Assembly (NCBI GenBank): GCA_032116735.1
Contig: JAUMAK010000005.1
Coordinates: forward strand, 12,418-76,417
Length of the DNA: 64,000 nt
Origin: Pirellulaceae bacterium
GTDB lineage: Bacteria > Planctomycetota > Planctomycetia > Pirellulales > Pirellulaceae
Reading direction: 5' to 3'
Notes under the pieces: generated by a model
What the model was told of the DNA's origin: nothing
What the model saw: the letters and a program-made list of their open reading frames with translations, nothing else
Databases searched by the model: none
Program-made: the position numbers and the translations under genes
Part shown: positions 3,110 to 23,798 of the stretch, piece by piece
Layout: each line of letters begins with the position of its first letter
How positions within the stretch are numbered: position 1 is the first letter of the stretch

Positions 3110-5626
3110 ATGAGTTCAACGCCGGGTGTGCCCAACGTCGAGCAATACGAAAAGCTGGCGTCTTTTTACTTGGGTCGTCGCTACGACCTCGCCGAGCAGC
3201 GGCCTTTGGACGAGCTGCTGATGTATGACGCCAAGGATCTATGCACGCACGCGATGTGCGTCGGGATGACCGGAAGTGGAAAGACCGGGTTGTGCCTGTC
3301 GTTGTTGGAGGAAGCGGCGATCGACGGGATTCCGGTGATTTGTGTCGATCCCAAGGGTGACCTGGCGAACCTGATGTTGGCGTTTCCGGAGTTGCGGCCT
3401 GAGGATTTTAAGCCTTGGCTGGAGCCTGGCGAGGCGACCCGTAAGGGCGTTTCGCTGGAGGAGTTGGCGGAGTCGACCGCCGCGACCTGGAAAAAAGGGT
3501 TGGCTTCGTGGGGCCAATCGCCCGATCGGATCCGGCGGTTTCGCGACAGCGTCGACATCGCGATCTACACCCCTGGAAGCAACGCCGGCTTGCCGTTGAC
3601 GGTCCTCAAGAGCTTCGATTCGCCACCACCGGAGGTCCTGGCCGATACCGACGCGATGCGTGAACGGGTGATGGGGGCTGCTTCGGGGCTGTTGACCTTG
3701 ATGGGGATCAACGCCGACCCGCTGCTGTCTCGCGAACACATCCTGATCTCGTCCTTGCTGGACCACGGTTGGCGAGAAGGGAAGCATTTGTCCTTGGCCG
3801 ACCTGATCGGGTTGATCCAGCGTCCCCCGATGCAGCGGATCGGCGTCATGGATTTGGAAACCTTCATGCCGATCGCCGAACGGGCGAAGATGTCGATGCA
3901 GCTTAATAACCTGCTCGCCTCGCCGGCGTTCGCCAGCTGGTTGGAGGGTGAAGCCCTATCGATCGAGCGGTTGCTGCACACCCCAGAGGGCAAGCCGCGG
4001 GTGTCGATTTTATCGATCGCCCATCTGAATGACACCGAGCGGATGTTTTTCTTGACGATCCTGCTCAACGAGTTGCTCGCTTGGGTACGGACCCAAAGTG
4101 GCACCGGGTCGCTGCGGGCGTTGTTTTACATGGATGAGATCGCGGGGTATTTTCCGCCCGTCAGTAACCCGCCGAGCAAGCCACCGATGTTAACGCTGCT
4201 AAAGCAGGCCCGCGCGTTTGGGCTCGGGATCACGCTGGCGACCCAAAACCCGGTCGACCTGGATTACAAAGGTTTGTCGAACATCGGCACCTGGTTCATC
4301 GGCAGGCTGCAGACGGAACGCGACAAGGCGCGGGTGTTGGACGGTCTGGAAGGGGCGTCGGTTCAAAACGGGGCGGCGTTCGATCGCAAGAGCATGGAAC
4401 TGATGTTGTCGGCGCTGGGTAATCGCGTTTTTCTCATGAACAATGTGCACGAGGATTCGCCGGTCGTCTTTCAAACGCGTTGGGCGTTGTCGTTCCTTGC
4501 CGGTCCGCTGGCACGCGCGCAGATCACTCGTCTGATGGCCGATCGCAAACGGTTCGGTGCCGTCGGTTCCCCAGTGGCGGGTGGTGTTGTTCCGCAGGCC
4601 ACGGCGCAGTCGGAACGGCCCATCGTCATCGACTTCCAGCAGGATCCCCTCCCCTCCCCTGCGGTGTCTGCCGTCGGGGCGCCGAAACGTCCCGTGATCC
4701 CGGCGGCGGTGGCCGAGCGGTTTTTGGAACCATCTGGCAGGCCGCTAGCAGGATTTCGGCTCGTCTATCGCCCGGCGATCCTCGGGGCCGGCTCATTGCA
4801 TTACGTACGGGCGTCCGGCGATGTCGATCGTTGGGTCGACTATCACTGTTTACTCGATTGTTCCCGAGGCCTCCCGAAGTCCGGTTGGGAAGAGGCGGCC
4901 GAGGTCGACGGTTGGGCCCTCGACCAGTCGCCCCGGGATGGGTTTGCCTTCGCCGAGGTCGCGACCGAACTATTGTCCGCCGCGACCTACAAGGGACTCG
5001 ATTCGCAATTCAAAGAGTATCTCTATCGCCATCATTCGATGACGATTTACAAAGCCCCGGCGCTCGGCAAGTTCGCCCCGGCCGGGATGTCGGAAGGGGA
5101 GGCCAGGGTTCATTTCACACAGGACCTGCGTGAATTAAGGGATCGCGAGACCGAAAAGATTCGTGCGAAGTACGCGTCGAAGGCCCAGTCACTCGAGAAG
5201 GCGATTCGCACCGCCGGGGAACGGGTCGAACGGGAGCGTTCAAACCTACGGTCGGTCGCGGCCGCACCGATGATCGAATTGGGAACGAGCATCTTGAATA
5301 CCTTCTTCGGCCGAAAGACCTCTCGCTCGGCGAGCTCTCGGACGGCTTCGGTCCTCCGGGGGGCCAACACCGCGTACAAGAAAAAAGCCGATGCCGATCG
5401 TGCCGAAGAGACGCTCCGCCAGTTGCAAATCGACCTCGAAGATCTCGAAACGTCGCTACGGAGAGAAATCGACGAGATGACGACCCAGTTCGATGTTACC
5501 CGGGTCGAGTTGGAACCTGTCGTCATCAGCCCTCGCAAATCGGATCTGAAGACGAGGCCGCTGGTCTTTTTATGGGTTCCGTGGCAGGTCGATCCGCAGG
5601 GGATCGCCGAGCCGATGTTCGGGTAG
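3110..5626 (+). CDS. HerA/FtsK/TrwB-type P-loop ATPase (DUF87-like) with a long C-terminal coiled-coil-like module
   Basis: ORF 3008..5626. Start moved to ATG 3110 (MSSTPGVPNVEQYEKLASFYLGRRYD). Walker A GMTGSGKTG, VICVDPKGD, Walker-B-like LFYMDEIAGYF, ATQNPVDLDYKGLSNIGTWFIGRLQTERD. C-terminal charged heptad-like stretch (RELRDRETEKIRAKYASKAQSLEKAIRTAGERVERE). Confidence 0.7.
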   Translation: MSSTPGVPNVEQYEKLASFYLGRRYDLAEQRPLDELLMYDAKDLCTHAMCVGMTGSGKTGLCLSLLEEAAIDGIPVICVDPKGDLANLMLAFPELRPEDFKPWLEPGEATRKGVSLEELAESTAATWKKGLASWGQSPDRIRRFRDSVDIAIYTPGSNAGLPLTVLKSFDSPPPEVLADTDAMRERVMGAASGLLTLMGINADPLLSREHILISSLLDHGWREGKHLSLADLIGLIQRPPMQRIGVMDLETFMPIAERAKMSMQLNNLLASPAFASWLEGEALSIERLLHTPEGKPRVSILSIAHLNDTERMFFLTILLNELLAWVRTQSGTGSLRALFYMDEIAGYFPPVSNPPSKPPMLTLLKQARAFGLGITLATQNPVDLDYKGLSNIGTWFIGRLQTERDKARVLDGLEGASVQNGAAFDRKSMELMLSALGNRVFLMNNVHEDSPVVFQTRWALSFLAGPLARAQITRLMADRKRFGAVGSPVAGGVVPQATAQSERPIVIDFQQDPLPSPAVSAVGAPKRPVIPAAVAERFLEPSGRPLAGFRLVYRPAILGAGSLHYVRASGDVDRWVDYHCLLDCSRGLPKSGWEEAAEVDGWALDQSPRDGFAFAEVATELLSAATYKGLDSQFKEYLYRHHSMTIYKAPALGKFAPAGMSEGEARVHFTQDLRELRDRETEKIRAKYASKAQSLEKAIRTAGERVERERSNLRSVAAAPMIELGTSILNTFFGRKTSRSASSRTASVLRGANTAYKKKADADRAEETLRQLQIDLEDLETSLRREIDEMTTQFDVTRVELEPVVISPRKSDLKTRPLVFLWVPWQVDPQGIAEPMFG

Positions 5627-5653
5627 GCCGACAGACGGCCGGTTCCCTATCAA

Positions 5654-8092
5654 TCATTTGGCGGTGTTCTCGTAAATCGGCAGGTGGCGATAAAAGACTT
5701 CGAGCGACAGTAGGTTCAGCGTCGTGAGGTAGAGGCGTCCTGCCTGGATCGCCCAGCGGTCGGGGATCGGTCCGGCGGGATCCCAGCTCCCTTCATTGGG
5801 CCCGCTTTTGACCTGCGCGTTGAGCAGGATCGGTTTGAGCTGGCCGTTCCAGTCTTGCCACCACTGCCCGCCCATGTGGAACATGACCTGGGTCGCGTAG
5901 TACCAGTAATAGGTGTCGCGGGCCGGGCTGGTCACGTCGCCGATTCTGGGCGGGTTGTTCAAAAGGTAAGCCGCGGCTTGGCGCATGTTCGTGTTGTCGC
6001 GGCCCCACCCCGAGTACATCCGCATCAGGATCGCAACGGCCGTCATCGACGGGGTCACCTCACGGCCGTGGCCTTGGGCCGCGGTGTTGGGGGCGAACGG
6101 GTTATAGCGGTAGAGGTCGCCCCGTTCGGGAGAGAGTTGGGCGAAATCGAGCCAGCGATCGACCCCTTCATAGGTCGAGGCGGGGACTGACAACCCGGCC
6201 AGCTCTCCGCTCTTGAGTGCCATCATCATCCAGCCGCTGACGCTGGTGTCGCTGCTAACTTGGGGCTGATAGCGCCACCCACCGCGTTGTCGGTGTTGGG
6301 TCTGAACGATGTAATCGATCGCACGCTGGGCAGGTTCGCGCAGTGCCGGATCGCCGGTCATCCCATAAGCCTCACAAATCGCGAGCGCCGCAATGCCGTG
6401 GGAGTAGAGTGCGACACTTTGGTTGCTGTAGGCGTCTTCGCTACGGAAGAGATTGCCGTCAGGCTGTTGCATGGCGAGCATCGCCCGGATCCCCTTAGCA
6501 ACGACAGGGGCATAACGGTGTTCGCGGTGGGTGTAGCCTGCCCCTTGGAAGGCGAGGAGTGACAGCCCTGTTGCCGCCGTGTCGCTGCGTAATGCGACTT
6601 CTTCGCCAGGGCTTTGCAACGTCCAGCGCCCGTCGGCCGTTTGTTGGGCGGCGAGGAACTTGAGGCCACGTTCGATCGCGTCTTCGGTTTCGGGGCCGGT
6701 TTCGGAGGCCGCCCCGGGGACTCCGCCTTTCGAATTGCGTAAGGTCCGGCGGCGAAAGACTTCAGGGATGGTGATTTGGTCCGCCGATGGCTTGAGGCCA
6801 CTGCCTCCACCGAACCGGGACTTCGGGTCGGGACGGCTCGCGACGTCACCGATTCGCGGCTGCATCTGGGCAAGCGATCCGATCGAGGGCCTTGCCAAGG
6901 GCGACCGGGCGATCGTACCGGCGCCGACGCGGGGCCCGATATCGGTCGGCAGGTTGATGTCGGTTGGCGGGGTGGTCACGGGGGCATCGGATGGCCGGTT
7001 CAGCGACATCGAATCGCTTCTGGACGGCGCGAGTTCTGTTCGTGGGGCGGGGGTGTCGCTGGGGACGGATGACCGGGCGTCAGCCGCCGGCAGGCTTGGC
7101 ATTTCGGGGGTCATCCCCAGCGCCTCCAGGGGGCGACGGCTGAGCCGAGGTCGGTCGGAGGGACGGGGCGCGTTGAGCGGCGTTACCGTCGGCAGGGTCT
7201 CCTGCGGGGGACGCGGGGGCGACTTGATCTCCGGCCGTTCGAGTGCGACGGCGGCCGACCGATCGGGGATCGAAGGGGTGTCGGGGAGGGCGAGCGATGC
7301 GGCAATCGCTGGCGAAGGGGGCGATCGCTCGGGTGCGGATTGCGTGGACGACATCCGCTCGGCCGCTTCCGGTTCGATCGCAGGCCGATTGCGGAGCTCG
7401 GGGATGGCGATCGAGGGCGGCAGGTCGATTTCGGGGAGTGCCGGCGGGGGTGTCGATCGGGACTGGGATAATGCCTCCGGTTCGTCCTGCGGTTCGGGGA
7501 GATTTGCCGCGGGGGCTGCCCGTGTGGCGAGCTCTTGAGGCTGCTCGGGTTGTGGGGTCTCGCGCTCGACGAACTCCAGGTTTGCGGCCGACTGGGGCTG
7601 GGGAGTGATTTCGGCCCGCCGCATCGATTCGGCTGCTGCAGACGCTTCGGCAGGGACGGGTTTGGCCCAATCGGGTTGGGAACTTTTCGCCGCGCGCGAG
7701 AAGAGGTAATCCGGAACGGTCTGCGGTTCACGTTCCCGTTGGGAACCGAGTTTCCCCGAATTTTCAGGAAAGTACTTTCCGAAGACGATCACGTTCACCG
7801 CCATCGACAACATGGTCAGGTGCAGCAGGATGCTGGCCAAAAAGCCGAGTTGTGCGGAACGTTCAAAGTACCGTGAGGCGACATACCGCGAGAGGAGCGA
7901 CAGCAGGACAACGCCTGTCCCGATCAGACCTAGATAAACGCCCGCATTATAAAAAGGGCGAGGGTCATCGAAACGAAGGTTGGTCAGGACGATGTAGCCA
8001 ACAACCCCACCCGCGACGAGCAGCCCGAGATCGAGCGGCCACATCCTTTCGGGTTGCCGGGGGGGGGCTTCTGCGGCGTACGGAAGGCTCAT
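5654..8092 (-). CDS. membrane protein: 3 TM helices, long Pro-rich linker and C-terminal prenyltransferase/squalene-oxidase-repeat (alpha/alpha-toroid) domain
   Basis: ORF 5654..8203. Start moved to ATG 8092 (MSLPYAAE) to remove the overlap with exbD. Hydrophobic helices LLVAGGVVGYIVL, VYLGLIGTGVVLLSLL, LGFLASILLHLTMLSMAVNVIVF. Several hundred residues of P/S/A-rich linker. C-terminal repeats LAAQQTADGRW, LAMQQPDGNLF, QRGGWRYQPQVSSDTSVSGWMMMAL. Confidence 0.6.
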   Translation of the reverse strand: MSLPYAAEAPPRQPERMWPLDLGLLVAGGVVGYIVLTNLRFDDPRPFYNAGVYLGLIGTGVVLLSLLSRYVASRYFERSAQLGFLASILLHLTMLSMAVNVIVFGKYFPENSGKLGSQREREPQTVPDYLFSRAAKSSQPDWAKPVPAEASAAAESMRRAEITPQPQSAANLEFVERETPQPEQPQELATRAAPAANLPEPQDEPEALSQSRSTPPPALPEIDLPPSIAIPELRNRPAIEPEAAERMSSTQSAPERSPPSPAIAASLALPDTPSIPDRSAAVALERPEIKSPPRPPQETLPTVTPLNAPRPSDRPRLSRRPLEALGMTPEMPSLPAADARSSVPSDTPAPRTELAPSRSDSMSLNRPSDAPVTTPPTDINLPTDIGPRVGAGTIARSPLARPSIGSLAQMQPRIGDVASRPDPKSRFGGGSGLKPSADQITIPEVFRRRTLRNSKGGVPGAASETGPETEDAIERGLKFLAAQQTADGRWTLQSPGEEVALRSDTAATGLSLLAFQGAGYTHREHRYAPVVAKGIRAMLAMQQPDGNLFRSEDAYSNQSVALYSHGIAALAICEAYGMTGDPALREPAQRAIDYIVQTQHRQRGGWRYQPQVSSDTSVSGWMMMALKSGELAGLSVPASTYEGVDRWLDFAQLSPERGDLYRYNPFAPNTAAQGHGREVTPSMTAVAILMRMYSGWGRDNTNMRQAAAYLLNNPPRIGDVTSPARDTYYWYYATQVMFHMGGQWWQDWNGQLKPILLNAQVKSGPNEGSWDPAGPIPDRWAIQAGRLYLTTLNLLSLEVFYRHLPIYENTAK

Positions 8093-8139
8093 CTGGGCGA
8101 TTGTGGTTCGTGGCGAATGTGCACGGACACCTGGTGGAC

Positions 8140-8568
8140 TTAACCCCCCGAGGGCCCTTCGCGGGTCGATACCGAGTAATCTGCGATCCCCGCTTCGTTG
8201 CACAAGTCCATCACGGTGACGACAGGCTGGAAGGAGGTTCCCGCATCTGCCCGGATCACGACGGCCTGATTGACCGGGTTGTTCGCGGCAGCGGCGGTGA
8301 GGGTTTCGCGGAGCTCATCCAAAGTTGTCGGCTGACTGCGCAGGTAAATATTACCCCGTGCATCGATATCGACCACGATTTCCCGCGGGCGATTTACCAT
8401 GGGCGAAGCGCTGGTGGCGGAGGGGAGAACGATATTGAGTCGCCGCTCATCCTCTTCCTCGAATTTGCTCGTGACGAGGAAAAAGATCAGTAGCAGAAAG
8501 ACGACATCGATCAGCGGGGTCAGGCTGAGGTTGTTGGCGACGCTGGAACGTTTGATCGAGACGGGCAT
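8140..8568 (-). CDS. exbD: ExbD/TolR family biopolymer transport protein
   Basis: 142 aa. Single N-terminal TM carrying the conserved Asp (LTPLIDVVFLLLIFFLV), followed by a periplasmic domain. Lies 16 nt downstream of exbB. Confidence 0.85.
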   Translation of the reverse strand: MPVSIKRSSVANNLSLTPLIDVVFLLLIFFLVTSKFEEEDERRLNIVLPSATSASPMVNRPREIVVDIDARGNIYLRSQPTTLDELRETLTAAAANNPVNQAVVIRADAGTSFQPVVTVMDLCNEAGIADYSVSTREGPSGG

Positions 8569-8584
8569 AGGTCAACGAACCACG

Positions 8585-9658
8585 TTAAGCGTGGCCACCG
8601 GTGGTGAGTGACGAGCTCGCCCCGCCGACAGGACTGGCGATCGGCGGGGAGGAGACCACGTTCCCGGTTGGGGGCGCGGCGGTTTGACGGGCTCGACCGG
8701 TCGCGGGCGGGAGCGAATGGAGCGAGCCATCCGTATGGAGTCGTGCGCGGCCTACGAACCGGACCAGGGTTGGGGCCAAACCGAAGGAGATCCGCTCGAT
8801 CCGATTGAAATGTTTGGCCAGTCGATTCTCGAGGTATTGAGCGAGGATCGCGGCAGGGATGGCAACGATCAATCCCGCGAGGGTTGTCACCAGGGCGACG
8901 TAGATCCCTTCGCTGAGTTGTTCGCTCCGGCTGCGGTCAGGGCTGAGGGTTGTCGATTCGTGGAACGCGACGATCATCCCCCAGACCGTGCCGAGCAAGC
9001 CCATCAGCGGGGTGGCCGACGCGGCCAAACTGAGCCAACGGATGGGGGCGGCCTGGTCGTCCGCTTCGCGTTGCAAGGCCTCGGAGGCGGCCCGTTCGAC
9101 ATCGGCGATCGGCTGGCCGGTACGCAAGAGCATCGCCGAAACGGTTGTCGCTAAGGCGGAGGGGTGTTCCTGGCACGCCGCCAGTGCTGAGGTCGGGTTG
9201 AAACGCTCGATCGGATCGGCGAGCCGCTGCAATTTGCCGATCAAGGCGGGTGGCATCAGTCGGCGGCGACGAAGGGAGATCATTCGTTCGACCGCCAGCG
9301 TGACGACCAAGATGGACATCACCCCGATCGGGATCATGAAGTTGCCGCCTCGGGCGATGAGGGTCAGCAGATCGATCCCGAGGGCTTGGTTTTCGGTCTG
9401 CTTTGCCGGCGACTCGGTTCCCTTGGGGGTGAGCAGGTCGCGGATGGCGTCGCCATCGACGGGGATGTCGCTGACCGTTGGGGGCTGCGGCGAATCGGCT
9501 TCGGCCTGCGGATTTTCCTGCGCGGCGAGCGGTGCTCGGGGGGCAAGACACATCACCAAACCGATAAGGAGGAGGCCACCGAACCGTCTGGCGAACGGCG
9601 CGTGACCGGAGACGATCGGTGGGACCGGCCGTTTTGGTGATAGCCCGAGAGGGGTCAT
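8585..9658 (-). CDS. exbB: MotA/TolQ/ExbB proton-channel family protein
   Basis: 357 aa. Signal-like N-terminus plus a periplasmic extension, then three TM helices (FMIPIGVMSILVVTLAVERMISL; LSLAASATPLMGLLGTVWGMIVAF; IYVALVTTLAGLIVAIPAAILAQYL). The ATG overlaps the stop of the upstream TPR gene (ATGA at 9655-9658). Confidence 0.85.
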   Translation of the reverse strand: MTPLGLSPKRPVPPIVSGHAPFARRFGGLLLIGLVMCLAPRAPLAAQENPQAEADSPQPPTVSDIPVDGDAIRDLLTPKGTESPAKQTENQALGIDLLTLIARGGNFMIPIGVMSILVVTLAVERMISLRRRRLMPPALIGKLQRLADPIERFNPTSALAACQEHPSALATTVSAMLLRTGQPIADVERAASEALQREADDQAAPIRWLSLAASATPLMGLLGTVWGMIVAFHESTTLSPDRSRSEQLSEGIYVALVTTLAGLIVAIPAAILAQYLENRLAKHFNRIERISFGLAPTLVRFVGRARLHTDGSLHSLPPATGRARQTAAPPTGNVVSSPPIASPVGGASSSLTTGGHA

Positions 9659-12600
9659 TGGCGAACTGATCGGGGGTTGGTAGTTGCGGGTTGGGCAGGA
9701 ACCTTCAGCCCCAGTTGGCTTAGGGCATCGAGCCGTTCTTTGCTCTTGGGGGCGAGTTCGTGTTGCGGGTGTTTGCGAACGACAAAGTCATAGAATTGCA
9801 TCGCGATCTCACCCGACTTTTTGCGGGCGTCCGCCTCTTTGACTCCTTGCATCATCAATTCGGCGCATCGACCGGCTTCATAACCACTTTTGGCTTGCCA
9901 GTTTTTGACTTCTGCCGAGGCCTGTTCGGCGCCATAGCCGAACATGACCCGTTGGAATTCGGGGATCGCCTTGGCGAAATCTTTACGACCGAAGAGGATC
10001 TCACCGACCATGAAGCGGGCACGGGCACCCAGGTCGTTCCGTTCCTTCTCCGCGACTTCGGCGTAGACGGTCATCGCCTCGTCCTCTTTGCCCGACTGCT
10101 GCAGCGAGTAGGCCGTCTCGTAGCGGGCCTTCGACAGATAGGACGAGTTGGGGAAACGTTTGCCCAATTCGTTAAACCATTCGACCGACGGCTCCCACTT
10201 CATGAGTTGCGACAGGCTTTGACCGCCGTGGAGGAAGACGAGTTCGCGAATTTGTCGGTCGGCGGCTTCGCCGATGGTCTTTTCTGATTCGTCCTTCTCG
10301 GTGATCCTTTTGCGGGCCGTTTCGTAAGCGGCCAAAGCGGCGTCGAACCGAGAGAGTTTGAATTGACCTTCGCCGACCATCAGGAGCGCATCGGGCAGGA
10401 ATTGTCCTTCGGGGAATTGCTTGGCAAGGTCGACGAAGGTTGATGAGGACGGTTCGAACTGGCCTGCCTTGTACTGCGACCACCCTTGGCGATAGAGCGC
10501 CTTCTCTTTCAATTCGGGGGAGGCCTTGGGGGATTGGGCCGCCGCGCCGAACGCCGCGATCGCATCCGCCCAGGACTCTCGCGAGTAATTCTGTTGTCCC
10601 AGGAAGTAATTCGCTTCGGGGAGACGGTCTGATTCGGGAAAGCGAGCGATCAACTCTTTGAACTGGGCCTCGGCGAGTTCGTTTTTGCCGTCATCCTTGT
10701 AGGCCCATGCCAGTTCGGCGAGGACCTTTTCGGACTCCGGGTAATCGGGGAGCGTTCTGACGATTTCGTCGAGGCGTTTGGAGGCGAGGTCCGGTCGTTT
10801 TTGTGACTGTTCGATGAGCGCCAATTCATAAAGGGCATTACCGCGGGGCACAGCAACCGGTGCGGTCTTCAAGAATTCTTCAAGCTGGGCTTTCGACTCT
10901 TCGGGCCGGTTGAGGGTTCGGAGGCACATCCCCATCGCCAGTCGGGCATCGCCGACAATCGGATGGCTGGGGTGTTCTTTGAGGATTTGTTCGAGAGGTC
11001 CGAGGGCGGCTTCGGCTTGGTTGCCGCGCATCAGGTTCCACCCTTTGCCGTAGAGGGCGAAGGGGGCGAGCGCGGGCTCTTTGGCCGATTTGATCAGTTC
11101 GTCGAACTTAGCGACGGCCCCTGGGTGGTCACCTTGGCGGGCCTTCATTAGTGCGAGGCGATAGCGGGCCTGATCGCCCCAGGGGTTGTCGGCGAGCTTT
11201 TGGGCCATTTCTTCCCAGGTTTTCGCGGCCAGTTCGTCATTGCCGGCAACGACATGGGCTTGGCCGAGTTGCAAATAGGCCTCATTGGCGAAGGGCCAAG
11301 TCACATCGGCGGCCAGCGAGTCGGAAAAGGCTTTGGCCGCTTCTGGACCGCGGCGTTGGGAGAGGTGGATTTGTCCGGCCACGAAGAGGGCTTCGGCCAA
11401 TTGCGGCGGTGAGAACGCCCCACGTTCGGCTTCGATCAACTTGATCCCTTCGTCGGGTTGGCCGGCCGCCGAACGTGCCGTCGCGGCGCGAATCACCCAG
11501 AGGGGCCACTGGGGTTTTTGTTTGGAGGCGGGGTCGTCGAGCAGCTTGGCGTACTGTTCGACCGATTTGGCTGGGTCACCCGCGGCGAGTTCCGCCTCGG
11601 CAACGATGTAGCGGACGTCGGGGACGAGTGAGTCGTTCGCAAATTTTTCGAGGAACTCGGAACCGAGTTCGAGGGCCGGACCGGCCTGCCCGAGGTCCAA
11701 TGCGGCGAACGCGGTGTTGTAAAGTGCCCGCGGCGCTTCGGGGGCTTGGGGTGCGGCACGGTACAGGTCGGCAAAAAGCTGCATCGCTTCGGCAGCCTTT
11801 CCGGGCAAAAGCATGGTCGCTTCGGCGAGGTCGAGCTTGAGCGTGTTCGCGTAGGGCCCTGTCGCACCGGCGTCGATTTGCTGTTTCGCGACGGCCGCGG
11901 CTTCCTGTGGTTTGCCGTCGCGCAGCGCGATCATCGCCAACCAGTGGGCCGACTCGGTCGATGAGGCGGGATCTTTGAGCGACATCACTCGTTGGAATCG
12001 CTTGGAGGCCTCTGGCAAATCGCCGGCACGATAGGTCGCCTGGGCGGAAGCGAGCATCGCGGCCCCCGCGTAAGGCGAGTCGGGAAACTCTTTGATCAAT
12101 CGCTCATAAATCGCGGACGCCTCCGCGGGCCGTTCGGCCTGGACGAGGGCGAAGGCCTGTCGCAGCAAAGCGTAAGGCTGTTGCGGCCCCGGGGCACTGG
12201 CGATCGGTTCGAAGTAACCAATCGCCTCAGCGAACTTCTTCTGAACGATGCTGGCATCCCCCATGCGGACCTTGGCATCGGCCTGCAGACGCGGGTCCTG
12301 GCAACCGCCGATGACCGCGCGATAGGCCTGCATCGCGTCATCGAAACGACCGGCATCTTCCAGTGCGATCCCTCGAGCGAAGATCGCTTCGCAGCGAAGT
12401 GGGGATTCTTTGGCCGATTCCAGTGCCAGGAGCTGGTCGTAGAGCTTGATCGCGTCTTCCGTTTTACCTAACGCGTAAGCCGCCTCGCCGCCGTAAAATA
12501 ATGCGCGGTCGAGAAATTTGCTCATCGGCTTTTCACGGATCAGCATCTGAAAGGCGGTTAGGCTCGCTTCCAGTCGTTTCACGTCCCGCCGTTCGCCACC

Positions 12601-13116
12601 CCCCGCGGCAGCGAATTGGCACCAACCCAGGTTGACCAAGCTCTCTTCGCGAATGTCCGACTTCGGGTCGGTGACGGCCCGGGCGAACGCGTCGGCGGCC
12701 AAAGCGTAGTCGGGATTTGCCTGTTGCATGTAGCAAACCCCCAGGTAATGCGATGCCTTGGGAACAAGCGGTTCTTTGGGGTATTCCGCCAAGAACCGTT
12801 TCCACCCTTCGATCGCCAACGGGATCGCCCCGTTCGTCTGAAAATTGGCGGCGTCGGCATAGGCCGCCATTGCCTTTTCATTCACCTGATCAGCCGGGGC
12901 CGTTGGCTTCGCACCCGCGGGGGCTGGAGGTTTGGCAGCGGCTGCTGTCGGAGCAGCCGAGCCTTTAGGCTCTTTCGCCCCCTTCGGCCCTTGGCCGAGG
13001 CCGGGTTGATACGAAAGTAGCGCGTGCCCGATGAGGATCGAGCAGAAGAGCGTGATCGTGATCCGGCGGTTTTGGCAAAAAACCGCAAGGAATGGCGGGG
13101 GTGACTGCGATGGCAT
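9655..13116 (-). CDS. giant membrane-anchored tetratricopeptide-repeat protein (YbgF/CpoB/BamD-style TPRs)
   Basis: 1153 aa. N-terminal hydrophobic anchor (ITLFCSILIGHALL), an A/P/K-rich linker, then many TPR-like helix pairs, e.g. PEANYFLGQQNYSRESWADAIAAFGAAAQ, EKALYRQGWSQYKAGQFEPSSSTFVDLAKQFP, ARARFMVGEILFGRKDFAKAIPEFQRVMFGY. Confidence 0.8.
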   Translation of the reverse strand: MPSQSPPPFLAVFCQNRRITITLFCSILIGHALLSYQPGLGQGPKGAKEPKGSAAPTAAAAKPPAPAGAKPTAPADQVNEKAMAAYADAANFQTNGAIPLAIEGWKRFLAEYPKEPLVPKASHYLGVCYMQQANPDYALAADAFARAVTDPKSDIREESLVNLGWCQFAAAGGGERRDVKRLEASLTAFQMLIREKPMSKFLDRALFYGGEAAYALGKTEDAIKLYDQLLALESAKESPLRCEAIFARGIALEDAGRFDDAMQAYRAVIGGCQDPRLQADAKVRMGDASIVQKKFAEAIGYFEPIASAPGPQQPYALLRQAFALVQAERPAEASAIYERLIKEFPDSPYAGAAMLASAQATYRAGDLPEASKRFQRVMSLKDPASSTESAHWLAMIALRDGKPQEAAAVAKQQIDAGATGPYANTLKLDLAEATMLLPGKAAEAMQLFADLYRAAPQAPEAPRALYNTAFAALDLGQAGPALELGSEFLEKFANDSLVPDVRYIVAEAELAAGDPAKSVEQYAKLLDDPASKQKPQWPLWVIRAATARSAAGQPDEGIKLIEAERGAFSPPQLAEALFVAGQIHLSQRRGPEAAKAFSDSLAADVTWPFANEAYLQLGQAHVVAGNDELAAKTWEEMAQKLADNPWGDQARYRLALMKARQGDHPGAVAKFDELIKSAKEPALAPFALYGKGWNLMRGNQAEAALGPLEQILKEHPSHPIVGDARLAMGMCLRTLNRPEESKAQLEEFLKTAPVAVPRGNALYELALIEQSQKRPDLASKRLDEIVRTLPDYPESEKVLAELAWAYKDDGKNELAEAQFKELIARFPESDRLPEANYFLGQQNYSRESWADAIAAFGAAAQSPKASPELKEKALYRQGWSQYKAGQFEPSSSTFVDLAKQFPEGQFLPDALLMVGEGQFKLSRFDAALAAYETARKRITEKDESEKTIGEAADRQIRELVFLHGGQSLSQLMKWEPSVEWFNELGKRFPNSSYLSKARYETAYSLQQSGKEDEAMTVYAEVAEKERNDLGARARFMVGEILFGRKDFAKAIPEFQRVMFGYGAEQASAEVKNWQAKSGYEAGRCAELMMQGVKEADARKKSGEIAMQFYDFVVRKHPQHELAPKSKERLDALSQLGLKVPAQPATTNPRSVRQ

Positions 13117-13394
13117 TGCGATCTATCTTTTAACGCAGGACGAAACCAGCCCCTCATTTTACCCCGCTCCGTAAGGGTCGCAAAGGACGAAACCGGGTTC
13201 TCCCTCCCTTCGGGATGTGGCGAAGTCCATTCGTTCGGCCCGATCGCTGTGGCTTGCCTAATCGATAGTTTTGCGTCGGGGGAGAGGTCACGGCTTTCGA
13301 AGAGAAACGTTCGTTACAGTAATCCGACAGATGCCGCCGCGCGGCCCTCCAAGGGGCTGGGGGTCGCGGGGCAATCCCGCTACTGAGGGTCTCG

Positions 13395-14234
13395 ATGCTC
13401 GACTTATATGACAAGGTTTCGGAAGCCCGAGATCAGATTCGCAACCGCTGGGATCGTCGCCCTCAGGTCGCGATCGTTTTGGGGACGGGCCTGGGAGGCG
13501 TTGTCAACGAGATCGAGGTCGAGGCGATTATCGATTATGCCGAAATCCCTCACTTCCCGATTTCGACCGCGACGAGCCACCGCGGAAGATTGGTTTGCGG
13601 CACCCTGCTCGGCGTGCCGGTCATCGCCATGGACGGGCGGATCCATTTCTATGAAGGCTATCCGCTCAAGCAGATCACCTTGCCGGTCCGCGTCTTCCGC
13701 TCGCTCGGCGCGGAGCTGCTGGTGTTGTCGAACGCGTGCGGGGGGATGAACCCTTACTTCTCGTCAGGCGACATCATGGTGATCGATGATCATATCAACC
13801 TGATCGGTGACAACCCGTTGATCGGGATCAATGACGATCGACTGGGGCCAAGGTTTCCGGACATGAGTGAGCCCTATGATCGGTTTTGGATCGATCGGGT
13901 TCGGGGGATCGCTAGGCGGCATGAGATCGACTTGCATCAGGGTGTCTTTGTTGCGGTCGCCGGCCCGAATTTGGAGACCCGTGCGGAGTACCGATTCTTG
14001 CGGACGATTGGCGCCGACGTGGTGGGAATGAGTACCGTCCCTGAGACGATCGTTGCGGTACATTGCGGGTTGAAAGTGATCGGACTATCGGTGATCACCG
14101 ACATGTGTTTGCCAGATGCGCTTAAGCCGGCCGAGATCAGCGAGATCGTCAGGGTCGCGGAGGAAGCTGAGCCGAAGCTCGCCTTGCTAGTCCGTGAGGT
14201 CGTCCGTGAGGTCGGCATGACGCGGATCGCGTAA
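13395..14234 (+). CDS. purine nucleoside phosphorylase, trimeric PunA-type, with Asp at the base-specificity position
   Basis: 279 aa. Motifs VLGTGLG, SHRGRLV, LSNACGGMNP, VGMSTVPETIVA, LSVITDMC. The Asp codon gac is at 14100-14102, where 6-oxopurine PNPs have Asn. Confidence 0.9.
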   Translation: MLDLYDKVSEARDQIRNRWDRRPQVAIVLGTGLGGVVNEIEVEAIIDYAEIPHFPISTATSHRGRLVCGTLLGVPVIAMDGRIHFYEGYPLKQITLPVRVFRSLGAELLVLSNACGGMNPYFSSGDIMVIDDHINLIGDNPLIGINDDRLGPRFPDMSEPYDRFWIDRVRGIARRHEIDLHQGVFVAVAGPNLETRAEYRFLRTIGADVVGMSTVPETIVAVHCGLKVIGLSVITDMCLPDALKPAEISEIVRVAEEAEPKLALLVREVVREVGMTRIA

Positions 14235-14309: not shown

Positions 14310-15173
14310 GTGAGGCGATCGATGATGCAGCCACGATCGGGTGTGACGGACCAGACGTTGGGATCGGCGATCCTGCACGTGAGTTCCCGGACCCCCTTAG
14401 TCCCCCGGGTGGCGATCATTTTAGGGAGCGGGTTGGGAGCTTTGGCCGATCGTTTGGCCGATGCGGTTGCGATCGGCTATGACTCGTTGCCAGGCTTCGG
14501 CAGGTCGATGGCGCGGGGCCACCGCGGCGAGTTGATCCTGGGGATGCTGGGCGACATCCCGGCCGTGATGATGGCCGGGCGGTTGCATCGTTACGAAGGG
14601 TATCGCGATGAGCAGATCGTTCTTCCCGTCAGGTTGATGGCCGCGATGGGGGCCGAGATCCTGATCGTCAGCAATGCTGCCGGTGGCTTGAATCCTTTTT
14701 TGCGGGTGGGTGATCTCGTCGTGATCCGCGACCACATCGATTTGGCCTACCGCCGAGGATCGTACCCGTCGGTCGGGACCGAATCCCCCAGGTATCCGAG
14801 TCGGGAGGTGTACGATCCCGGGTTGATCGATGTGGCGTTGGCGGGGGCTAGGGCGGGCGATTTTCGCGCGGTCGAAGGGGTCTATTTGGCGACTTTGGGG
14901 CCGACTTATGAGACCCCTGCCGAGTACCGGATGATGCGTCGGCTCGGGGCGGACGTTGTCGGTATGAGCACCGCACCGGAGGCCCGCGTCGCCGCGGACT
15001 TGGGGTTGCGGGTCTTGGGGTTGTCGGTCGTGACCAACGTAGCGAAGCCCGAACGCGGATCAGCATCGGCCGCCCTACCGACGACCCATGACGAGGTCTT
15101 GGCGGTCGGCCTTGGGGTGGTCGACAAGGTGTGCCGGATCATCGATGAGGTCATGCGAAGCGGAATCGTGTAG
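14310..15173 (+). CDS. punA: purine nucleoside phosphorylase, trimeric PunA-type, with the canonical Asn
   Basis: 287 aa from GTG 14310; ATG 14322/14325 are alternative starts. Motifs ILGSGLG, GHRGELI, VSNAAGGLNP, VGMSTAPEARVA, LSVVTNVA (Asn codon aac at 15036-15038). Confidence 0.85.
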   Translation: MRRSMMQPRSGVTDQTLGSAILHVSSRTPLVPRVAIILGSGLGALADRLADAVAIGYDSLPGFGRSMARGHRGELILGMLGDIPAVMMAGRLHRYEGYRDEQIVLPVRLMAAMGAEILIVSNAAGGLNPFLRVGDLVVIRDHIDLAYRRGSYPSVGTESPRYPSREVYDPGLIDVALAGARAGDFRAVEGVYLATLGPTYETPAEYRMMRRLGADVVGMSTAPEARVAADLGLRVLGLSVVTNVAKPERGSASAALPTTHDEVLAVGLGVVDKVCRIIDEVMRSGIV

Positions 15174-15252
15174 ACTGAGATCTCGAGTCCGTCCACCAGT
15201 TCATCTGCCGCCGTCGGCGGCTTTGCGAGATCGGTCGAAAGCGAGGTCCCAG

Positions 15253-16725
15253 ATGTCAAACGTTCCCTTCCGACCCCTATTCTGCCGGGGTTTTGTCGCA
15301 GTCGTGTGCTTGTCGGCGTTGGCCATTTCGTCGGTAGGCCCGGCGATCGCGCAAGAAAAGGAATCGGCTTCAGCGGTGGCCGAACCGCCGACGCGTGATG
15401 AGATCATCACGATGATCCGCGAACGGCGATTTGCCGACGGCTTGCAGCGATTGGACGATGCCTTGGTCGCCAGTCCGAATGACTACTCCCTGGGCGTCTT
15501 GTACTACAACCTCGTGATGGCGATCGGGAACGACAAGTCGGACGATTCGCTGGCGCTGCTCCGCTCGATCCTGCAGCGTCATCAGGAAGCGCCGAACCCG
15601 GGGGTGGGCAACGTCATCGCCTTGGCCGCCGCGACGGAATCGATCTTGCTGCGAGACGAGTCGCTCTCGTTGGACGACAAGCTGGGGATGCTCGATCGGC
15701 TCGATGAGAAGACGGTGGGTGGCAACCCGATGTTGGAGATGCCTCGGCGAACCGCCATGAACCGCCGCGTTATGTTGCTGCTCAGTGCGGACAGGAAAGA
15801 AGAGGGGTTGGCCAAGCTCGAAGCGTTGGTCACGGAGTCGAAGGCGGATCTCGCTGGGAAATCGCCCACTGCGATCGCGAAATTCGTCACGGCTGTGCAG
15901 ACGTTCCAATCGCTCGGCGGGACGGCCTTCCCAGAGCGGGCAGCGGAATTGATGGCCGAGGCACAGGGCGCGACGTCGGAAGCGTTCGCGGCAGAGCAGG
16001 TCGATCCGCTGGTGATGAACGCGTTCTTCATGCTCCGTTTGAGTCATGCGAACATGCTCGCCCGGACCGATATTGATATGGCGGAAAAATTGCTTAAAGA
16101 GCTCGGCGAGGCGCTCGAATCGGCCCCGACTAAAGTCGGTGAGCAGAACGCCCGAGCGGTTGATGGTTACGCACGTTCGGTTCAGCAGCTTCGTTCGCGG
16201 GTCGCAGCGACGAAAAAGATCAACGCGATGATCGGGACGGAGGCCCCCGAGATCGATGCCGAACACTTCGTCGCCGGCGAGCCGGTCTCGTTGGCCGATC
16301 TCCGCGGCAAGGTCGTGCTGATCGATTTTTGGGCCGTCTGGTGCGGCCCGTGCATCATCACATTCCCGCATCTGATCGAATGGCACGAGAAGTATGCCGA
16401 TAAGGGCTTGGTGATTCTTGGGGCGACGCGGTTCTATGGTTACCGTTGGGATGAGGAGGCCGGTCGTGCGGTCCGCGTTGAGGAGGCGATCCCTGCCGAG
16501 CAAGAGTTAGCGATGTTGGAGAAGTTTCGGGAGTCCCACGGCTTGAAGCACCCGTTCTTTGTCACCCCGGCACAGAGCGATTTTCAAGCAGCCTACGGGG
16601 TGACCGGGATCCCGCACGCGGTCCTGATCGACAAAGCAGGAAAGATCCAAATGATTCGGGTCGGCTCTGGCGAGGCGAACGCGAAGGATCTGGAAGCGAA
16701 GATCGAGGAGCTTTTGGGGAGCTGA
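15253..16725 (+). CDS. TlpA-like thiol:disulfide oxidoreductase (thioredoxin fold) with a long helical N-terminal domain
   Basis: ORF 15088..16725. Start moved to ATG 15253 (MSNVPFRPLFCRGFVAVVCLSALAISS, signal-like). C-terminal thioredoxin motif LIDFWAVWCGPCIITFP. Confidence 0.75.
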   Translation: MSNVPFRPLFCRGFVAVVCLSALAISSVGPAIAQEKESASAVAEPPTRDEIITMIRERRFADGLQRLDDALVASPNDYSLGVLYYNLVMAIGNDKSDDSLALLRSILQRHQEAPNPGVGNVIALAAATESILLRDESLSLDDKLGMLDRLDEKTVGGNPMLEMPRRTAMNRRVMLLLSADRKEEGLAKLEALVTESKADLAGKSPTAIAKFVTAVQTFQSLGGTAFPERAAELMAEAQGATSEAFAAEQVDPLVMNAFFMLRLSHANMLARTDIDMAEKLLKELGEALESAPTKVGEQNARAVDGYARSVQQLRSRVAATKKINAMIGTEAPEIDAEHFVAGEPVSLADLRGKVVLIDFWAVWCGPCIITFPHLIEWHEKYADKGLVILGATRFYGYRWDEEAGRAVRVEEAIPAEQELAMLEKFRESHGLKHPFFVTPAQSDFQAAYGVTGIPHAVLIDKAGKIQMIRVGSGEANAKDLEAKIEELLGS

Positions 16726-20947: not shown

Positions 20948-23101
20948 TCACCTGCCGTTTCGAATGATCCAAAACAGTTTGGCGATCGCTTCGCGCTGTG
21001 CCTCTGCATCCCCTTCCGTTGGTCCGGTGATCTGTCGGGCGATATCGATCTGTTCTGGGGTGACGTTGCGATAACCGGCCGCATAGAACGCGTGACGGCG
21101 TTGTTCCTCGATGTCGCTAATCGATTCCATCCAACCGCCCCTCAACCCCTCGCGATCGGCTAACCACTGGGCCCACCAGTAATCCTCGTCGGCGGGTCGT
21201 TGCGTCGGGCCCGTGGTCGGGGGAGCGATGCCTGGTCTTCGGGCAGGTGCTAACAGCAGCGGTTGTGCGAGGACGGCGCGGTCGGTGGCGATCGTCGTTG
21301 GCAGTCCGGACGACCTCGAATTCATCATCGCTATCAGTTGCCGACTGCTCGACATCGGCCAATGCGCCCGTGCCGCGGCGAAAGACCGCTGGGCAAGGGA
21401 CGCCGTGGCCAACGCTTCTTCGGAGGCGATCTGCCAACGGTCTTGCAGAAAAACATCGGGCAAGCCTCGACGCATCGGGTCACACCGGATCACCCAATCG
21501 GCGGCGGCGCGAATGTCAAAGCCCGTCGCTAACAAGCGGTCGGCGAGCATATCGAGCCCCCGATCGAGCGCATCGTCATGTGGGGCTGCGATCGGCGAAC
21601 TGGTCGGGGAGACCATGGGTGTCCCGAAGCCGATCGACCAGAGGTGGTTCGCGAGGGTTCGTGCGACTTGTCGGTTGCCGATGATCCGATCGCGGATCGC
21701 CAGGGTGGGCGACGGAGAGAGGGTCGCCGATGGGCTTGGTGCGGGTAGCCAGCGTTCAGGGATTTCTGGTGTTGCTACCTTCTGCCGGCCGTCCGGGAGT
21801 TCATAAAAGAGCGTCGCCGACTTCGCGTCAACGAACATCGCTGCGGTCGACCAGTAATCTTGCTGCGTCCACCGGCTATCGATGGGGGAATCGTGACATC
21901 GGGCACAAGCGGCATCCGCTCCGGCGACTTTGGATGCGAACCATTCGCCGAGGACTTCCGGCCGATAAGTTGCCCCGGGACGGTTCGTCGGTTGGGGCTC
22001 GCGATGCGATGATGCCAGTTCCTCGACCCATTCGGCTAGCCAATGATCGAAGCGATCGCCGCGATGGATCGTTCGTGCGGCAGTTTCGATCAGCGCTTCG
22101 AGGCGATCGCGGCCCGGTCGCAGGTCTTGGCTTAGCTCGGAGACCAACCTCCGTGCGAGTTCCCTCGCGGCGGCAGGGTCGTGCCACGGGTAGGCGACTC
22201 GCGAAGCGATCGCGTCGTTATCCTGGGCGGCGTCAGCGAGGGCGGATTCGTCACCGCCCTTGTCGTCGCCCAAGGCGGGCGATGCTTGAACCGCGATTCC
22301 GAAACGGTCTGCGATCCGATCGGACCACGCGAGCGGATCGGAGAGGTTTGCAGGAGTCACACCGATCGAATTCCAATAACCCTTGAACTGTTCGTCGAAT
22401 TTAGCCAGCCCGGCAAGATCATCGATTGGCGGCTTGGGTGGCGACGATGGGCCGGAAGGACCGTTGGCTGCGAGCTCCGAAGCCATCGGTGACGCGGGGG
22501 GGCGATTCGGCCCGATCGAGTCGCTGTCGGGGGCCTTCGCCGTGGCGGTGGAGTTAGGTTCCGACGCCCGATTCAGCGGGTGCGTATCCCCGCTGAGTAG
22601 GACGGGGGATTTCGGGGTCGGGCTGCTGCCGCCTGACGCTGGGCTTTTCGAAGTTGCTGTCGATGAGCCCTGGGACAACGCGAGGTCATCGGCGAGTGTG
22701 GCGGTTTCTCTGGTTCGTTTACGGGCGGGTGTTTGCGGCCGCTGGGGGGCCGGGGTCGCGGCCCGGACGGCGACCTTCGACGGCGTACCCGCCAGTTGGC
22801 GGTAACTTCGAAAGGCAGAGAACGCGACGACGGCCAAGACCGATGCCGCCAAGCTCGACCAAACGGCGGTGCTGATGTTTCGGCGGGAATTTCCTTCGGC
22901 GGGTTCTCCCAATCCTTGAGGACGGACCGGTGCGCGGCGGGCAGATTCTCGGAGGACGGCTTCGGTGAAATCGCGACGTGGGGGGGCCGTTTGCGAGTCG
23001 CGTTCGAAAAACGCCTGCAGCATCGCGTCCAGAGCCCGATCATCGGCCTCCGAAAGGCCTTCGGGGCGGTCTGACGGTTGGTCATGTAGGCCGTTGGTCA
23101 T
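20948..23101 (-). CDS. putative anti-sigma factor with one TM and a periplasmic DUF1553-like (PSD1-like) domain
   Basis: 717 aa, 34 nt downstream of the ECF sigma gene. Cytoplasmic N-terminus, TM helix AVWSSLAASVLAVVAFSAF, S/P/A-rich linker. The C-terminal domain carries CARCHDSPIDSRWTQQDYWSTAAMF and ANHLWSIGFG, which align to motifs of the DUF1549/1553 protein at 25111-26829. Confidence 0.45.
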   Translation of the reverse strand: MTNGLHDQPSDRPEGLSEADDRALDAMLQAFFERDSQTAPPRRDFTEAVLRESARRAPVRPQGLGEPAEGNSRRNISTAVWSSLAASVLAVVAFSAFRSYRQLAGTPSKVAVRAATPAPQRPQTPARKRTRETATLADDLALSQGSSTATSKSPASGGSSPTPKSPVLLSGDTHPLNRASEPNSTATAKAPDSDSIGPNRPPASPMASELAANGPSGPSSPPKPPIDDLAGLAKFDEQFKGYWNSIGVTPANLSDPLAWSDRIADRFGIAVQASPALGDDKGGDESALADAAQDNDAIASRVAYPWHDPAAARELARRLVSELSQDLRPGRDRLEALIETAARTIHRGDRFDHWLAEWVEELASSHREPQPTNRPGATYRPEVLGEWFASKVAGADAACARCHDSPIDSRWTQQDYWSTAAMFVDAKSATLFYELPDGRQKVATPEIPERWLPAPSPSATLSPSPTLAIRDRIIGNRQVARTLANHLWSIGFGTPMVSPTSSPIAAPHDDALDRGLDMLADRLLATGFDIRAAADWVIRCDPMRRGLPDVFLQDRWQIASEEALATASLAQRSFAAARAHWPMSSSRQLIAMMNSRSSGLPTTIATDRAVLAQPLLLAPARRPGIAPPTTGPTQRPADEDYWWAQWLADREGLRGGWMESISDIEEQRRHAFYAAGYRNVTPEQIDIARQITGPTEGDAEAQREAIAKLFWIIRNGR

Positions 23102-23135
23102 CGTCCGGAAAAGCCCATGGGTATAGGAGATCGCA

Positions 23136-23774
23136 TCATCGTTCGGTTTCGGCCTCGGGCCAGCGGTTTCGCTCGCCCGGGTCGCGTTTGTTCTTCAATT
23201 CGGTCAGTTTGGATTGGACGCAGTCTCGAAGCTGCTGTTTGGCCCGCTGCATCAGGTTTCGCGCCCCGTGTTCACTGATACCGAGTTTCTCCGCGATCGA
23301 AGCCCGACTGGCGTTTTCCGCGAATCGCATCTGCAGCGCTAAGCGGGCTCGGTCGGTGATCGAATCGAGGCAAATCCGTAGGCAGTCGATCCCTTCGTCG
23401 CCACTCAGGTCGCTACCGGCCCAGCGGTCCCAAATCTCGTCGAGCGGGTCGTCGGTGACAATCGTCTTGACGCGGCCCCCTTTGCGGTGGTGGGTGATCA
23501 ACAAATTTCGCGCTGTCCTGCGGAGGTAGGCCGCGGTCGCGCTTTGGCTCCATTGCGAGAACGATTCCTGACAAATCACCTTCACCAACGTTTCTTGAGT
23601 CAGGTCATCTGCCAGTGAATCGTCGCAACCGAGCATCCGGAGGTATCGCCAAATGCCGAGTTGGTGGCGGCGGATCAGTTCTTCCGCCGTAAGTACTTTC
23701 TCGGGGGGTGGTCGCTCGTCAGGTTCGTCACTCACAGATCGATTCACACCGAGCGTAACGGGAAGGCCTGCCAA
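23136..23774 (-). CDS. ECF-type RNA polymerase sigma-70 family factor
   Basis: 212 aa; the track start is TTG, so the exact start is uncertain. Region 2 is HQLGIWRYLRMLGCDDSLADDLTQETLVKV. Region 4 HTH is RASIAEKLGISEHGARNLMQRAKQQLR. Confidence 0.85.
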   Translation of the reverse strand: MAGLPVTLGVNRSVSDEPDERPPPEKVLTAEELIRRHQLGIWRYLRMLGCDDSLADDLTQETLVKVICQESFSQWSQSATAAYLRRTARNLLITHHRKGGRVKTIVTDDPLDEIWDRWAGSDLSGDEGIDCLRICLDSITDRARLALQMRFAENASRASIAEKLGISEHGARNLMQRAKQQLRDCVQSKLTELKNKRDPGERNRWPEAETER

Positions 23775-23798
23775 GAGGCGGATGGACCTCCCTCTGTG

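Follow-up and report, generated by a model that had tools for sequence, protein, structure and literature searches.

The question raised by a block of four genes in the genome of a Pirellulaceae bacterium (assembly GCA_032116735.1, contig JAUMAK010000005.1) is what kind of protein is encoded behind a pair of ExbB/TolQ-like and ExbD/TolR-like genes when it is neither TonB nor TolA. The stretch analysed, hereafter the window, is 64,000 nucleotides (nt) long (positions 12,418 to 76,417 of the forward strand); all coordinates are positions within it, and the block spans 5654-13116. Judged from its sequence, the fourth product, here called X, is probably a force transducer of the TonB/TolA class bearing a new, toroidal head and coupled to a TolQR-like motor, an assignment that is nevertheless far from certain. 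All four open reading frames (ORFs) are encoded on the minus strand, with the boundaries assigned to them in the original prediction made for this locus:

9655-13116, minus strand: gene 1, a tetratricopeptide repeat (TPR) protein of 1153 amino acids (aa), predicted to be periplasmic, with YbgF/BamD-type TPR units
8585-9658, minus strand: gene 2, a TolQ/ExbB-like proton-channel subunit, 357 aa, PF01618
8140-8568, minus strand: gene 3, an ExbD/TolR-like subunit, 142 aa, PF02472
5654-8092, minus strand: gene 4, X, a putative toroid-headed, TonB-like protein, 812 aa from the ATG at 8092

In the sequence itself, the start codon of exbB lies on the stop codon of the TPR gene in an ATGA overlap at 9655-9658, while the gaps between exbB and exbD and between exbD and the gene for X are 16 nt and 47 nt respectively, in agreement with the tight, co-directional arrangement originally described. 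A longer ORF for X, beginning with GTG and extending up to 8203, would overlap exbD; the ATG at 8092 is taken as the start because a homologue that is 94% identical over 100% coverage (P0001) is also 812 aa long. TonB and TolA are likewise encoded directly after exbB/tolQ and exbD/tolR.

Hydropathy, an AlphaFold2 (AF2) model built with a 24-sequence alignment and Foldseek searches all bear out the expectation that X is a Pro-rich protein with three transmembrane (TM) helices and a toroid at its C-terminus. The relevant features are:

7772-8041, minus strand: residues 18-107, three TM helices (AF2 helices 18-38, 50-75 and 80-107)
6698-7771, minus strand: residues 108-465, a disordered Pro/Ala/Ser-rich linker, assigned from composition and the AF2 predicted local distance difference test (pLDDT)
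5657-6697, minus strand: residues 466-812, a single (alpha/alpha)6 toroid head, assigned from AF2 and Foldseek
7820-7834, minus strand: Ser87-x3-His91 in TM3, a candidate motor-docking motif equivalent to TonB Ser16/His20
7700-7720, minus strand: residues 125-131, 'TVPDYLF', a hydrophobic motif behind TM3 that is conserved and flanked by Pro (His+34 to His+40)

Exactly three hydrophobic segments are found, centred near residues 28, 60 and 94. The loop at residues 68-81 has a net charge of +2 and the N-terminal tails of homologues are basic, hence the N-terminus is predicted to lie inside, and the linker and head in the periplasm. Within the linker, pLDDT is below 50 at all but three of residues 111-464, and the 358 residues from 108 to 465 are rich in Pro (17.6%), Ala (12.8%) and Ser (11.5%). 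Members of the X family range from about 794 to about 2243 aa in length, a variation confined entirely to this linker. Like TonB and TolA, therefore, X has a predicted N-in topology, a TM helix with Ser-x3-His, a Pro-rich, disordered domain II and a globular C-terminal head. It differs from them in having three TM helices rather than one, a linker that in the X family is 3 to 15 times longer, and a head of about 345 residues folded as an (alpha/alpha)6 toroid in place of the TonB_C/TolA_C domain of about 90 residues, which acts by beta-strand addition.

The head is modelled as all-helical from residue 467 to 811, with pLDDT mostly above 90, and only (alpha/alpha)6 toroids were returned when it was compared with the PDB using Foldseek. 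These include 8paj and 8pak, which are monodomain class II terpene-cyclase-like proteins (E = 2e-7, template modelling score (TM-score) normalised to the target 0.66), together with AprG, CPF_2247, MstE, GH76 mannanases and the sugar 2-epimerases acting on cellobiose or GlcNAc; across these E ranges from 2e-7 to 1e-3 and the target-normalised TM-score from 0.52 to 0.66. While the overall fold is shared, these toroids are only 11-19% identical to the head of X and, unlike it, are not tethered to a membrane motor. A phmmer search of PDB sequences with the toroid gave no meaningful match, nor did a search of the same sequences with the N-terminus of X. Every Pfam and NCBIfam match of the head falls below its curated threshold, including SQHop_cyclase_C (PF13243; 24.0 bits against a cut-off of 26.1) and the weak matches to Pec_lyase, GH88 and GlcNAc 2-epimerase. 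Given these scores, the lack of a match among PDB sequences and the absence of the DxDD motif, the toroid head is assignable to none of the families that are its neighbours in fold. No Pfam or NCBIfam match to TonB_C/TolA_C (PF03544, PF06519 or PF13103) is present in X, which therefore is not a member of the TonB/TolA family, though it may work like one. Scanning Pfam at E values of up to 10 with the N-terminus and linker of X and of two paralogues revealed nothing relevant.

Two alignments of the X family (A1 and A2) and one of a paralogous family (A3) were used, invariance being read from the 24-sequence X alignment. All of the invariant residues in the membrane region, Gln81, Leu85, His91 and Leu92, are in TM3. 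His91 never varies in A1 or A2; the same holds for Ser87 in A2, and in A1 its conservation is at least 90%. The depth and orientation of this Ser-x3-His pair match those of Ser16/His20 in TonB (positions from a PDB-verified sequence), and we take them to be the same as those of Ser18/His22 in TolA.

The paralogous family links this helix to TonB. It was traced from a weak match in the first search (P0073) and yielded 3836 matches at E ≤0.001; the best 120 of these are typically about 590 aa long and include, among those named, proteins of Aeoliella, Pirellulimonas, Posidoniimonas, Pseudobythopirellula and Lacipirellulaceae (for example Aeoliella mucimassa P0090 and Pirellulimonas nuda P0104). 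Its toroid is homologous to that of X (hhalign probability 100%, E = 2.4e-66, 36% identity). Ahead of the toroid only Ser49 and His53 are invariant, the initiator Met1 aside, and hhalign places Ser87/His91 in TM3 of X on this pair (probability 84%, E = 8e-6). At His+24 to +28, and mostly at +25, the paralogues carry the sequence 'PV(R/K)V(T/R)IV', which fits the published D-box pattern (PMC10907165); 19 of the 20 sequences with a detected Ser-x3-His have a match to the pattern in this interval. In E. coli TonB, for which a sequence identical to PDB 9ddo_F, a chain of full-length TonB, was used, Ile45 of the D-box is at His20+25, the same spacing as in most of the paralogues. Aligning the paralogue profile with E. 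coli TonB residues 11-55 (probability 67%, E = 5e-5) brings the Ser-x3-His pairs into register, and the D-boxes too. Several members of the family carry the Joint Genome Institute (JGI) label 'TonB'.

The genomic setting of the paralogues is similar in kind. In three genomes the gene directly follows those for an ExbB of 228 aa and an ExbD of 146 aa, and in turn is followed by tatA/tatB:

L086, 4986-10495: paralogue cluster in Aeoliella
L087, 4697-10586: paralogue cluster in Pirellulimonas
L088, 4735-10359: paralogue cluster in a record labelled Rubripirellula amarantea
L085, 3-3167: fourth locus, cut at its upstream end, with ExbD directly upstream of the paralogue gene

The gene order in these clusters is a BON-domain gene, a gene of about 200 aa encoding an unknown product, ExbB, ExbD, the toroid protein of about 590 aa, tatA and tatB. 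The paralogues thus share with X a homologous toroid, a homologous Ser-x3-His helix and the position directly after ExbB-ExbD; they differ in their shorter length, short Pro/Glu linker, canonical D-box and compact ExbB, in the BON-domain gene upstream and tatA/tatB downstream, and in having no giant TPR gene. Between the two types of operon, ExbD is 38% identical, ExbB 34% and the toroid 36%, and this similar level of divergence is consistent with a module of motor and transducer having been duplicated as a unit.

X itself possesses no canonical D-box at the TonB offset. The segment following TM3 is conserved in the family, however, with a consensus of (R/K)KT(V/I)P(D/E)(Y/H)(L/I/V)F from His+32 to His+40, followed by PDW-x2-PV, and distant members retain a T(I/V)P(D/E)Y core. 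It is possible, from sequence, that 'TVPDYLF' is a diverged D-box. One distant member (P0324) has an Asn at the position of the TM3 His (S-L-L-V-N) and keeps T-V-P-D-Y after the helix; TonB with Asn in place of His20 is functional.

The association between X and the motor genes was then assessed in the genomes of relatives, scanning one genome per species. At least 565 relatives of X were confirmed in genome contigs by tblastn, and in the best 80 of these loci the positions of all four window proteins were located in the same way. All 80 are from Planctomycetota or unclassified metagenome-assembled genomes (MAGs); where the order is given, it is Pirellulales in nearly every case. The arrangements are distributed as follows:

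45 of 80 loci: TPR-ExbB-ExbD-X, in order and on one strand
1 of 80 loci: ExbB-ExbD-X
11 of 80 loci: ExbD-X only, 6 of them with at least 3 kb upstream of ExbD; the named members are Pirellula sp.
3 of 80 loci: X with no exbD upstream (L008, L033 and L061)
20 of 80 loci: contig too short to judge

Hence X directly adjoins a motor gene in 57 of the roughly 60 informative loci, and the gene order is syntenic across Pirellulales, as the hypothesis of a functional unit had called for. Between the stop codon of ExbB and the point where the ExbD match begins, the median distance is 13.5 nt. Separate look-ups showed that the genes are arranged in this way in Rosistilla oblonga too, and also in a distantly related MAG of Pirellulales with an X of 1370 aa. 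Complete genomes in which X is present include those of Rosistilla oblonga (CP036318) and Novipirellula sp. SH528. The genes flanking the block are common to its two closest relatives only, which implies that conservation applies to the block as such; the nearest contig is JBEIRZ010000294.1 (L005, labelled 'Planctomycetaceae bacterium'), with 94-99% protein identity to the window. Within the window the block is an isolated unit, since its neighbours are on the opposite strand: on one side a HerA-like gene whose end is at 5626, on the other a gene for a PNP/UDP phosphorylase with its start at 13395.

The pairing of the membrane module with a toroid appears equally consistent. An index-free search with a hidden Markov model (HMM) profile of the N-terminus of X identified 574 representative clusters, 384 of them at E ≤1e-10, and the module is always N-terminal. 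Among the best 150 matches were 142 new representatives, of which 80 have the toroid and 62 are shorter, with no other head seen in this set. Of the short, headless sequences five were inspected; four end within the linker and one where the head begins. A word-indexed search with the same profile returned only 7 fragments and was uninformative on other architectures.

As had been anticipated, the two motor subunits belong to the ExbB/TolQ and ExbD/TolR families with scores well above threshold (PF01618: E = 1.6e-24, 86.5 bits, cut-off 22.9; PF02472: E = 1.5e-31, 109.6 bits, cut-off 25.4). NCBIfam models for TolQ and TolR rank slightly above those for ExbB and ExbD, TolQ being the top match of the ExbB-like protein, while all four equivalog models fall far below their cut-offs; the pair therefore forms a distinct subfamily. 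The closest solved relative of the ExbB-like protein is E. coli TolQ (8odt, E = 2.3e-8), and in the alignment to it the 'GTVWG' and 'AL(I/V)xT' segments are kept, the Thr residues of which we take to be the pore-lining Thr145 and Thr178 of TolQ. In the ExbD-like protein 'TPLIDVVFLLL' aligns with 'TPFIDVMLVLL' of ExbD, placing Asp21 on the conserved TM Asp, presumably Asp25 in E. coli numbering; beyond the membrane only the small ExbD-type periplasmic domain is present. To judge from these families and residues, the pair has what a working proton motor of the 5:2 type needs.

The TPR protein was predicted to be YbgF/CpoB-style, a description that proved half right. It contains YbgF-type repeats (TIGR02795, E = 1.2e-74 in 11 stretches) and matches TPR_16 (E = 1.6e-46), but its 1153 aa make it four times as large as CpoB, and it scores only 118 bits on the CpoB model NF008068, against a cut-off of 383, such that it is not an orthologue of CpoB. 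Its own orthologues have N-terminal Sec-type signal peptides and no lipobox Cys, and we infer that it is a soluble periplasmic scaffold. Nor does the locus otherwise have the make-up of a Tol-Pal system. In agreement with the original prediction, no TonB, TolA, TolB or Pal domain was found in a non-exhaustive scan of 22 window ORFs, the four genes of the block included, and no gene for TolB, Pal or a TonB-dependent transporter is linked to X at this locus.

A mechanism can be proposed from these components. The TolQ-like and TolR-like proteins would form an ion-driven motor of the ExbB5-ExbD2 type in the cytoplasmic membrane, on the evidence of their family membership and conserved channel residues. 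TM3 of X may dock through Ser87 and His91 on the exterior of the pentamer, where TonB and TolA are seen in structures of the E. coli Ton and Tol motors (PMC12215075), and the conserved segment just after the helix may be held by the periplasmic domains of ExbD. The Pro-rich linker, of about 350 residues here and up to about 1700 in relatives, would then cross the planctomycetal periplasm, which is unusually wide, allowing the toroid head to engage a ligand at the wall or outer membrane; turning of the motor would pull on or displace the head and with it the target. The TPR protein is translationally coupled to the motor gene and could serve in the periplasm as a scaffold or an adaptor, either for the head or for what the head binds. 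Fold neighbours would favour either a glycan or a lipid or terpenoid as the ligand of the head. Because the nearest folds are toroids that handle sugars and terpenoids, a glycan, whether peptidoglycan, an outer-membrane polysaccharide or an imported one, is our first guess. The best explanation of the whole block is thus that it encodes a self-contained trans-envelope machine of Pirellulales driven by the proton motive force (PMF). The suggestion that a PMF-driven stator is here coupled to a new periplasm-spanning output protein is accordingly upheld, as far as sequence can take it, by synteny, the predicted fold, the Ser-x3-His and the D-box of the paralogue.

Several observations weigh against the interpretation of X as a transducer. 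Of the SHLS motif of TonB and TolA (Ser-x3-His-x6-Leu-x3-Ser), X keeps Ser-x3-His only, the residue at His+7 being Ala98 and that at His+11 Ile or Val; the D-box is canonical in the paralogue and not in X; and X has two more TM helices than TonB. The alignment of its N-terminus with E. coli TonB by hhalign is not significant (probability 1.4%, with TM1 as the helix aligned), so the link between X and TonB is transitive, through the paralogue, and direct homology is not claimed. The association with motor genes also has exceptions, namely the three loci with no exbD upstream and the Pirellula clade, in which only ExbD and X are linked. In a further locus (L045, 5323-11113) an X-like ORF comes immediately after the TPR gene, ExbB and ExbD both being missing from the interval. 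Finally, the head is very strongly conserved, its identity in the 80 genome loci being 49-73%, and many of its polar and aromatic residues are invariant; this would fit a specific binding pocket, and would also fit the active site of an enzyme.

Some of these exceptional loci can be described further. The gene preceding X in L033 (9920-12568), a locus from a lake MAG of low GC content, is an Exo_endo_phos gene. The X-like ORF of L045, a locus counted among those that could not be judged, has three TM helices and the sequence 'LVSLVVHLLL'. The loci with ExbD and X alone are L025, L023, L044, L052, L054, L056, L058, L063, L069, L074 and L077, mostly from Pirellula sp. In L025 (9546-12493) the ORFs for ExbD and X overlap, and upstream of them are opposite-strand genes with no relation to the block; the ExbB and TPR genes that would match must therefore be absent or located elsewhere.

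Alternatively, X might be a periplasmic enzyme or binding protein held in the membrane by its anchor, for instance a hydrolase, lyase or epimerase of glycans or a toroid handling lipids or terpenoids; it would then be co-transcribed with the motor without being driven by it, and the motor would work with a partner encoded elsewhere. Most of the nearest folds are indeed enzymes (class II terpene cyclase-like proteins, AprG, GH76 mannanases and sugar epimerases), the weak Pfam matches are to families of this kind, the invariant residues of the head include many Asp, Glu, His, Arg, Trp and Tyr, and X is found without an adjacent exbD in three loci. We nevertheless regard this as unlikely. It leaves unexplained the invariant Ser-x3-His within the membrane, the D-box of the paralogue and the near-obligate position after exbD in two families; the matches to enzyme families are all below curated thresholds, and the acid motif of class II cyclases is absent. 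There is also no obvious need for an enzyme to be carried on a disordered linker of 250-1700 residues that varies so greatly in length, which is better suited to a tether that reaches across the envelope than to an anchored enzyme.

Rather less likely again is that X anchors or regulates the stator, the toroid binding peptidoglycan or another envelope polymer so as to fix or gate the motor, in the manner of the OmpA-like domain of MotB/Pal-type proteins in other 5:2 motors, with the TPR protein or some other component providing the output. Such a role might be expected in a phylum without Pal (PMC12204202 supplement), especially as the ExbD-like protein has only its small periplasmic domain, toroid folds often bind glycans, and the TPR gene is directly linked to that for X in L045. 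However, the TonB-type motif in the membrane and the D-box of the paralogue are marks of a transducer rather than of the anchoring subunit of a stator, and a very long, flexible linker would make a poor static anchor. That X really is a squalene-hopene cyclase or a prenyltransferase, as the source annotations 'squalene--hopene cyclase' and 'prenyltransferase/squalene oxidase repeat-containing protein' and the sub-threshold SQHop_cyclase_C match might suggest, is so improbable as to be effectively refuted, since it has a single toroid rather than the two domains of a beta-gamma cyclase, lacks DxDD in 24/24 sequences of the X family (and 21/21 of the paralogues), scores far below threshold on TIGR01787 (25.8 against 322.7 bits) and TIGR01507 (17.7 against 431.1 bits), has its head predicted to be periplasmic at the end of a disordered tether, and has no invariant Cys in the only position nearby. 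The same variable Cys, together with the sub-threshold scores, rules out a zinc site of the prenyltransferase or LanC type.

The interpretation of X as a transducer is not without precedent. Motor-driven force transducers headed by a vWA domain occur in bacteria of the Planctomycetes-Verrucomicrobia-Chlamydiae (PVC) group, Bacteroidetes and Proteobacteria (Mol Biol Evol 2025, PMC12204202), and in PVC bacteria such transducers, which have an SHLS TM helix, have been reported downstream of TPR-tolQ-tolR-tolR (2025, PMC12204202). This operon grammar is common to the X block, making the vWA-headed class its closest published precedent; the differences are that it has a vWA head in place of a toroid, a heterologous pair of tolR genes where the X block has one tolR-like gene, and a linker of about 100 residues compared with about 350 to more than 1000, and that X has three TM helices. 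There is no mention of toroid, prenyltransferase or squalene-cyclase-like heads in that study (PMC12204202), and no description was found in the literature of toroid, prenyltransferase or squalene-oxidase-repeat proteins with ExbD, or of TonB-like proteins in Planctomycetota. As a non-TonB head behind TPR-tolQ-tolR has already been published for vWA, the novelty here is one of head domain and not of kind. On the sequence evidence, X is best read as a third head class for transducers of the TonB/TolA type, with an unusual three-TM anchor and with a linker and a TPR partner that are both giant. In Rhodopirellula baltica, exbB (RB12053) and exbD (RB12055) are reported to be induced after one hour of high salinity (PMC2754498).

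A few further features of the window were recorded. A candidate promoter lies just upstream of the ATG of the TPR gene:

13156-13183, minus strand: sigma-70-like promoter candidate, TTGCGA-16-TAAAAT, 9/12 matches

It is the sole promoter-like match in 5300-13600, and as shuffled sequences contain 1.2 such matches on average, it is weak. No terminator-like site on the minus strand was found inside the block, which is itself weak evidence. A functional link to the nearby redoxin gene at 15088-16725 was considered and dropped, because the proximity is conserved only in the closest relative. PSCyt2/PSD1 (DUF1549/DUF1553) and DUF1501 genes typical of planctomycetes are found at 20948-26829 on the minus strand, in keeping with the window being of Pirellulales origin. 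Two adjacent ORFs on the same strand (35452-41184 and 41186-43597), encoding 1910 aa and 803 aa, have no Pfam match at E ≤1e-4 and lie where AT skew reaches its extreme for the window (-0.449 at 36-38 kb) and G+C content its maximum (about 0.65-0.66).

TonB and TolA are the textbook solutions to the problem of powering an outer membrane that has no energy of its own, and both use the same small C-terminal domain. The X block and its paralogues suggest that, in hundreds of planctomycete lineages, a large (alpha/alpha)6 toroid has also been combined with the motor-binding module. These proteins have until now gone under database names such as squalene-hopene cyclase, prenyltransferase, pectic acid lyase or TonB, which this reading would correct. 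A broader proposal, offered tentatively and as one that may well prove wrong, is that the toroid-headed proteins, in at least two motor-linked families, are a main means by which Pirellulales carry energy from the PMF across the enlarged periplasm, functionally replacing Tol-Pal through tethering or remodelling of the wall and outer membrane, energising the uptake of large polysaccharides, or both, with the toroid serving as a force-bearing clamp on glycan or lipid in place of a domain that works by beta-strand addition. Planctomycetes are reported to lack pal (PMC12204202 supplement), and the mechanism of their 'selfish' polysaccharide uptake has been stated to be unknown (PMC6474216). X would therefore be a concrete candidate for how these bacteria, with a wide periplasm and reportedly no Pal, mechanically couple their membranes, and likewise for how they may import macromolecules in the absence of the known TonB-dependent machinery.

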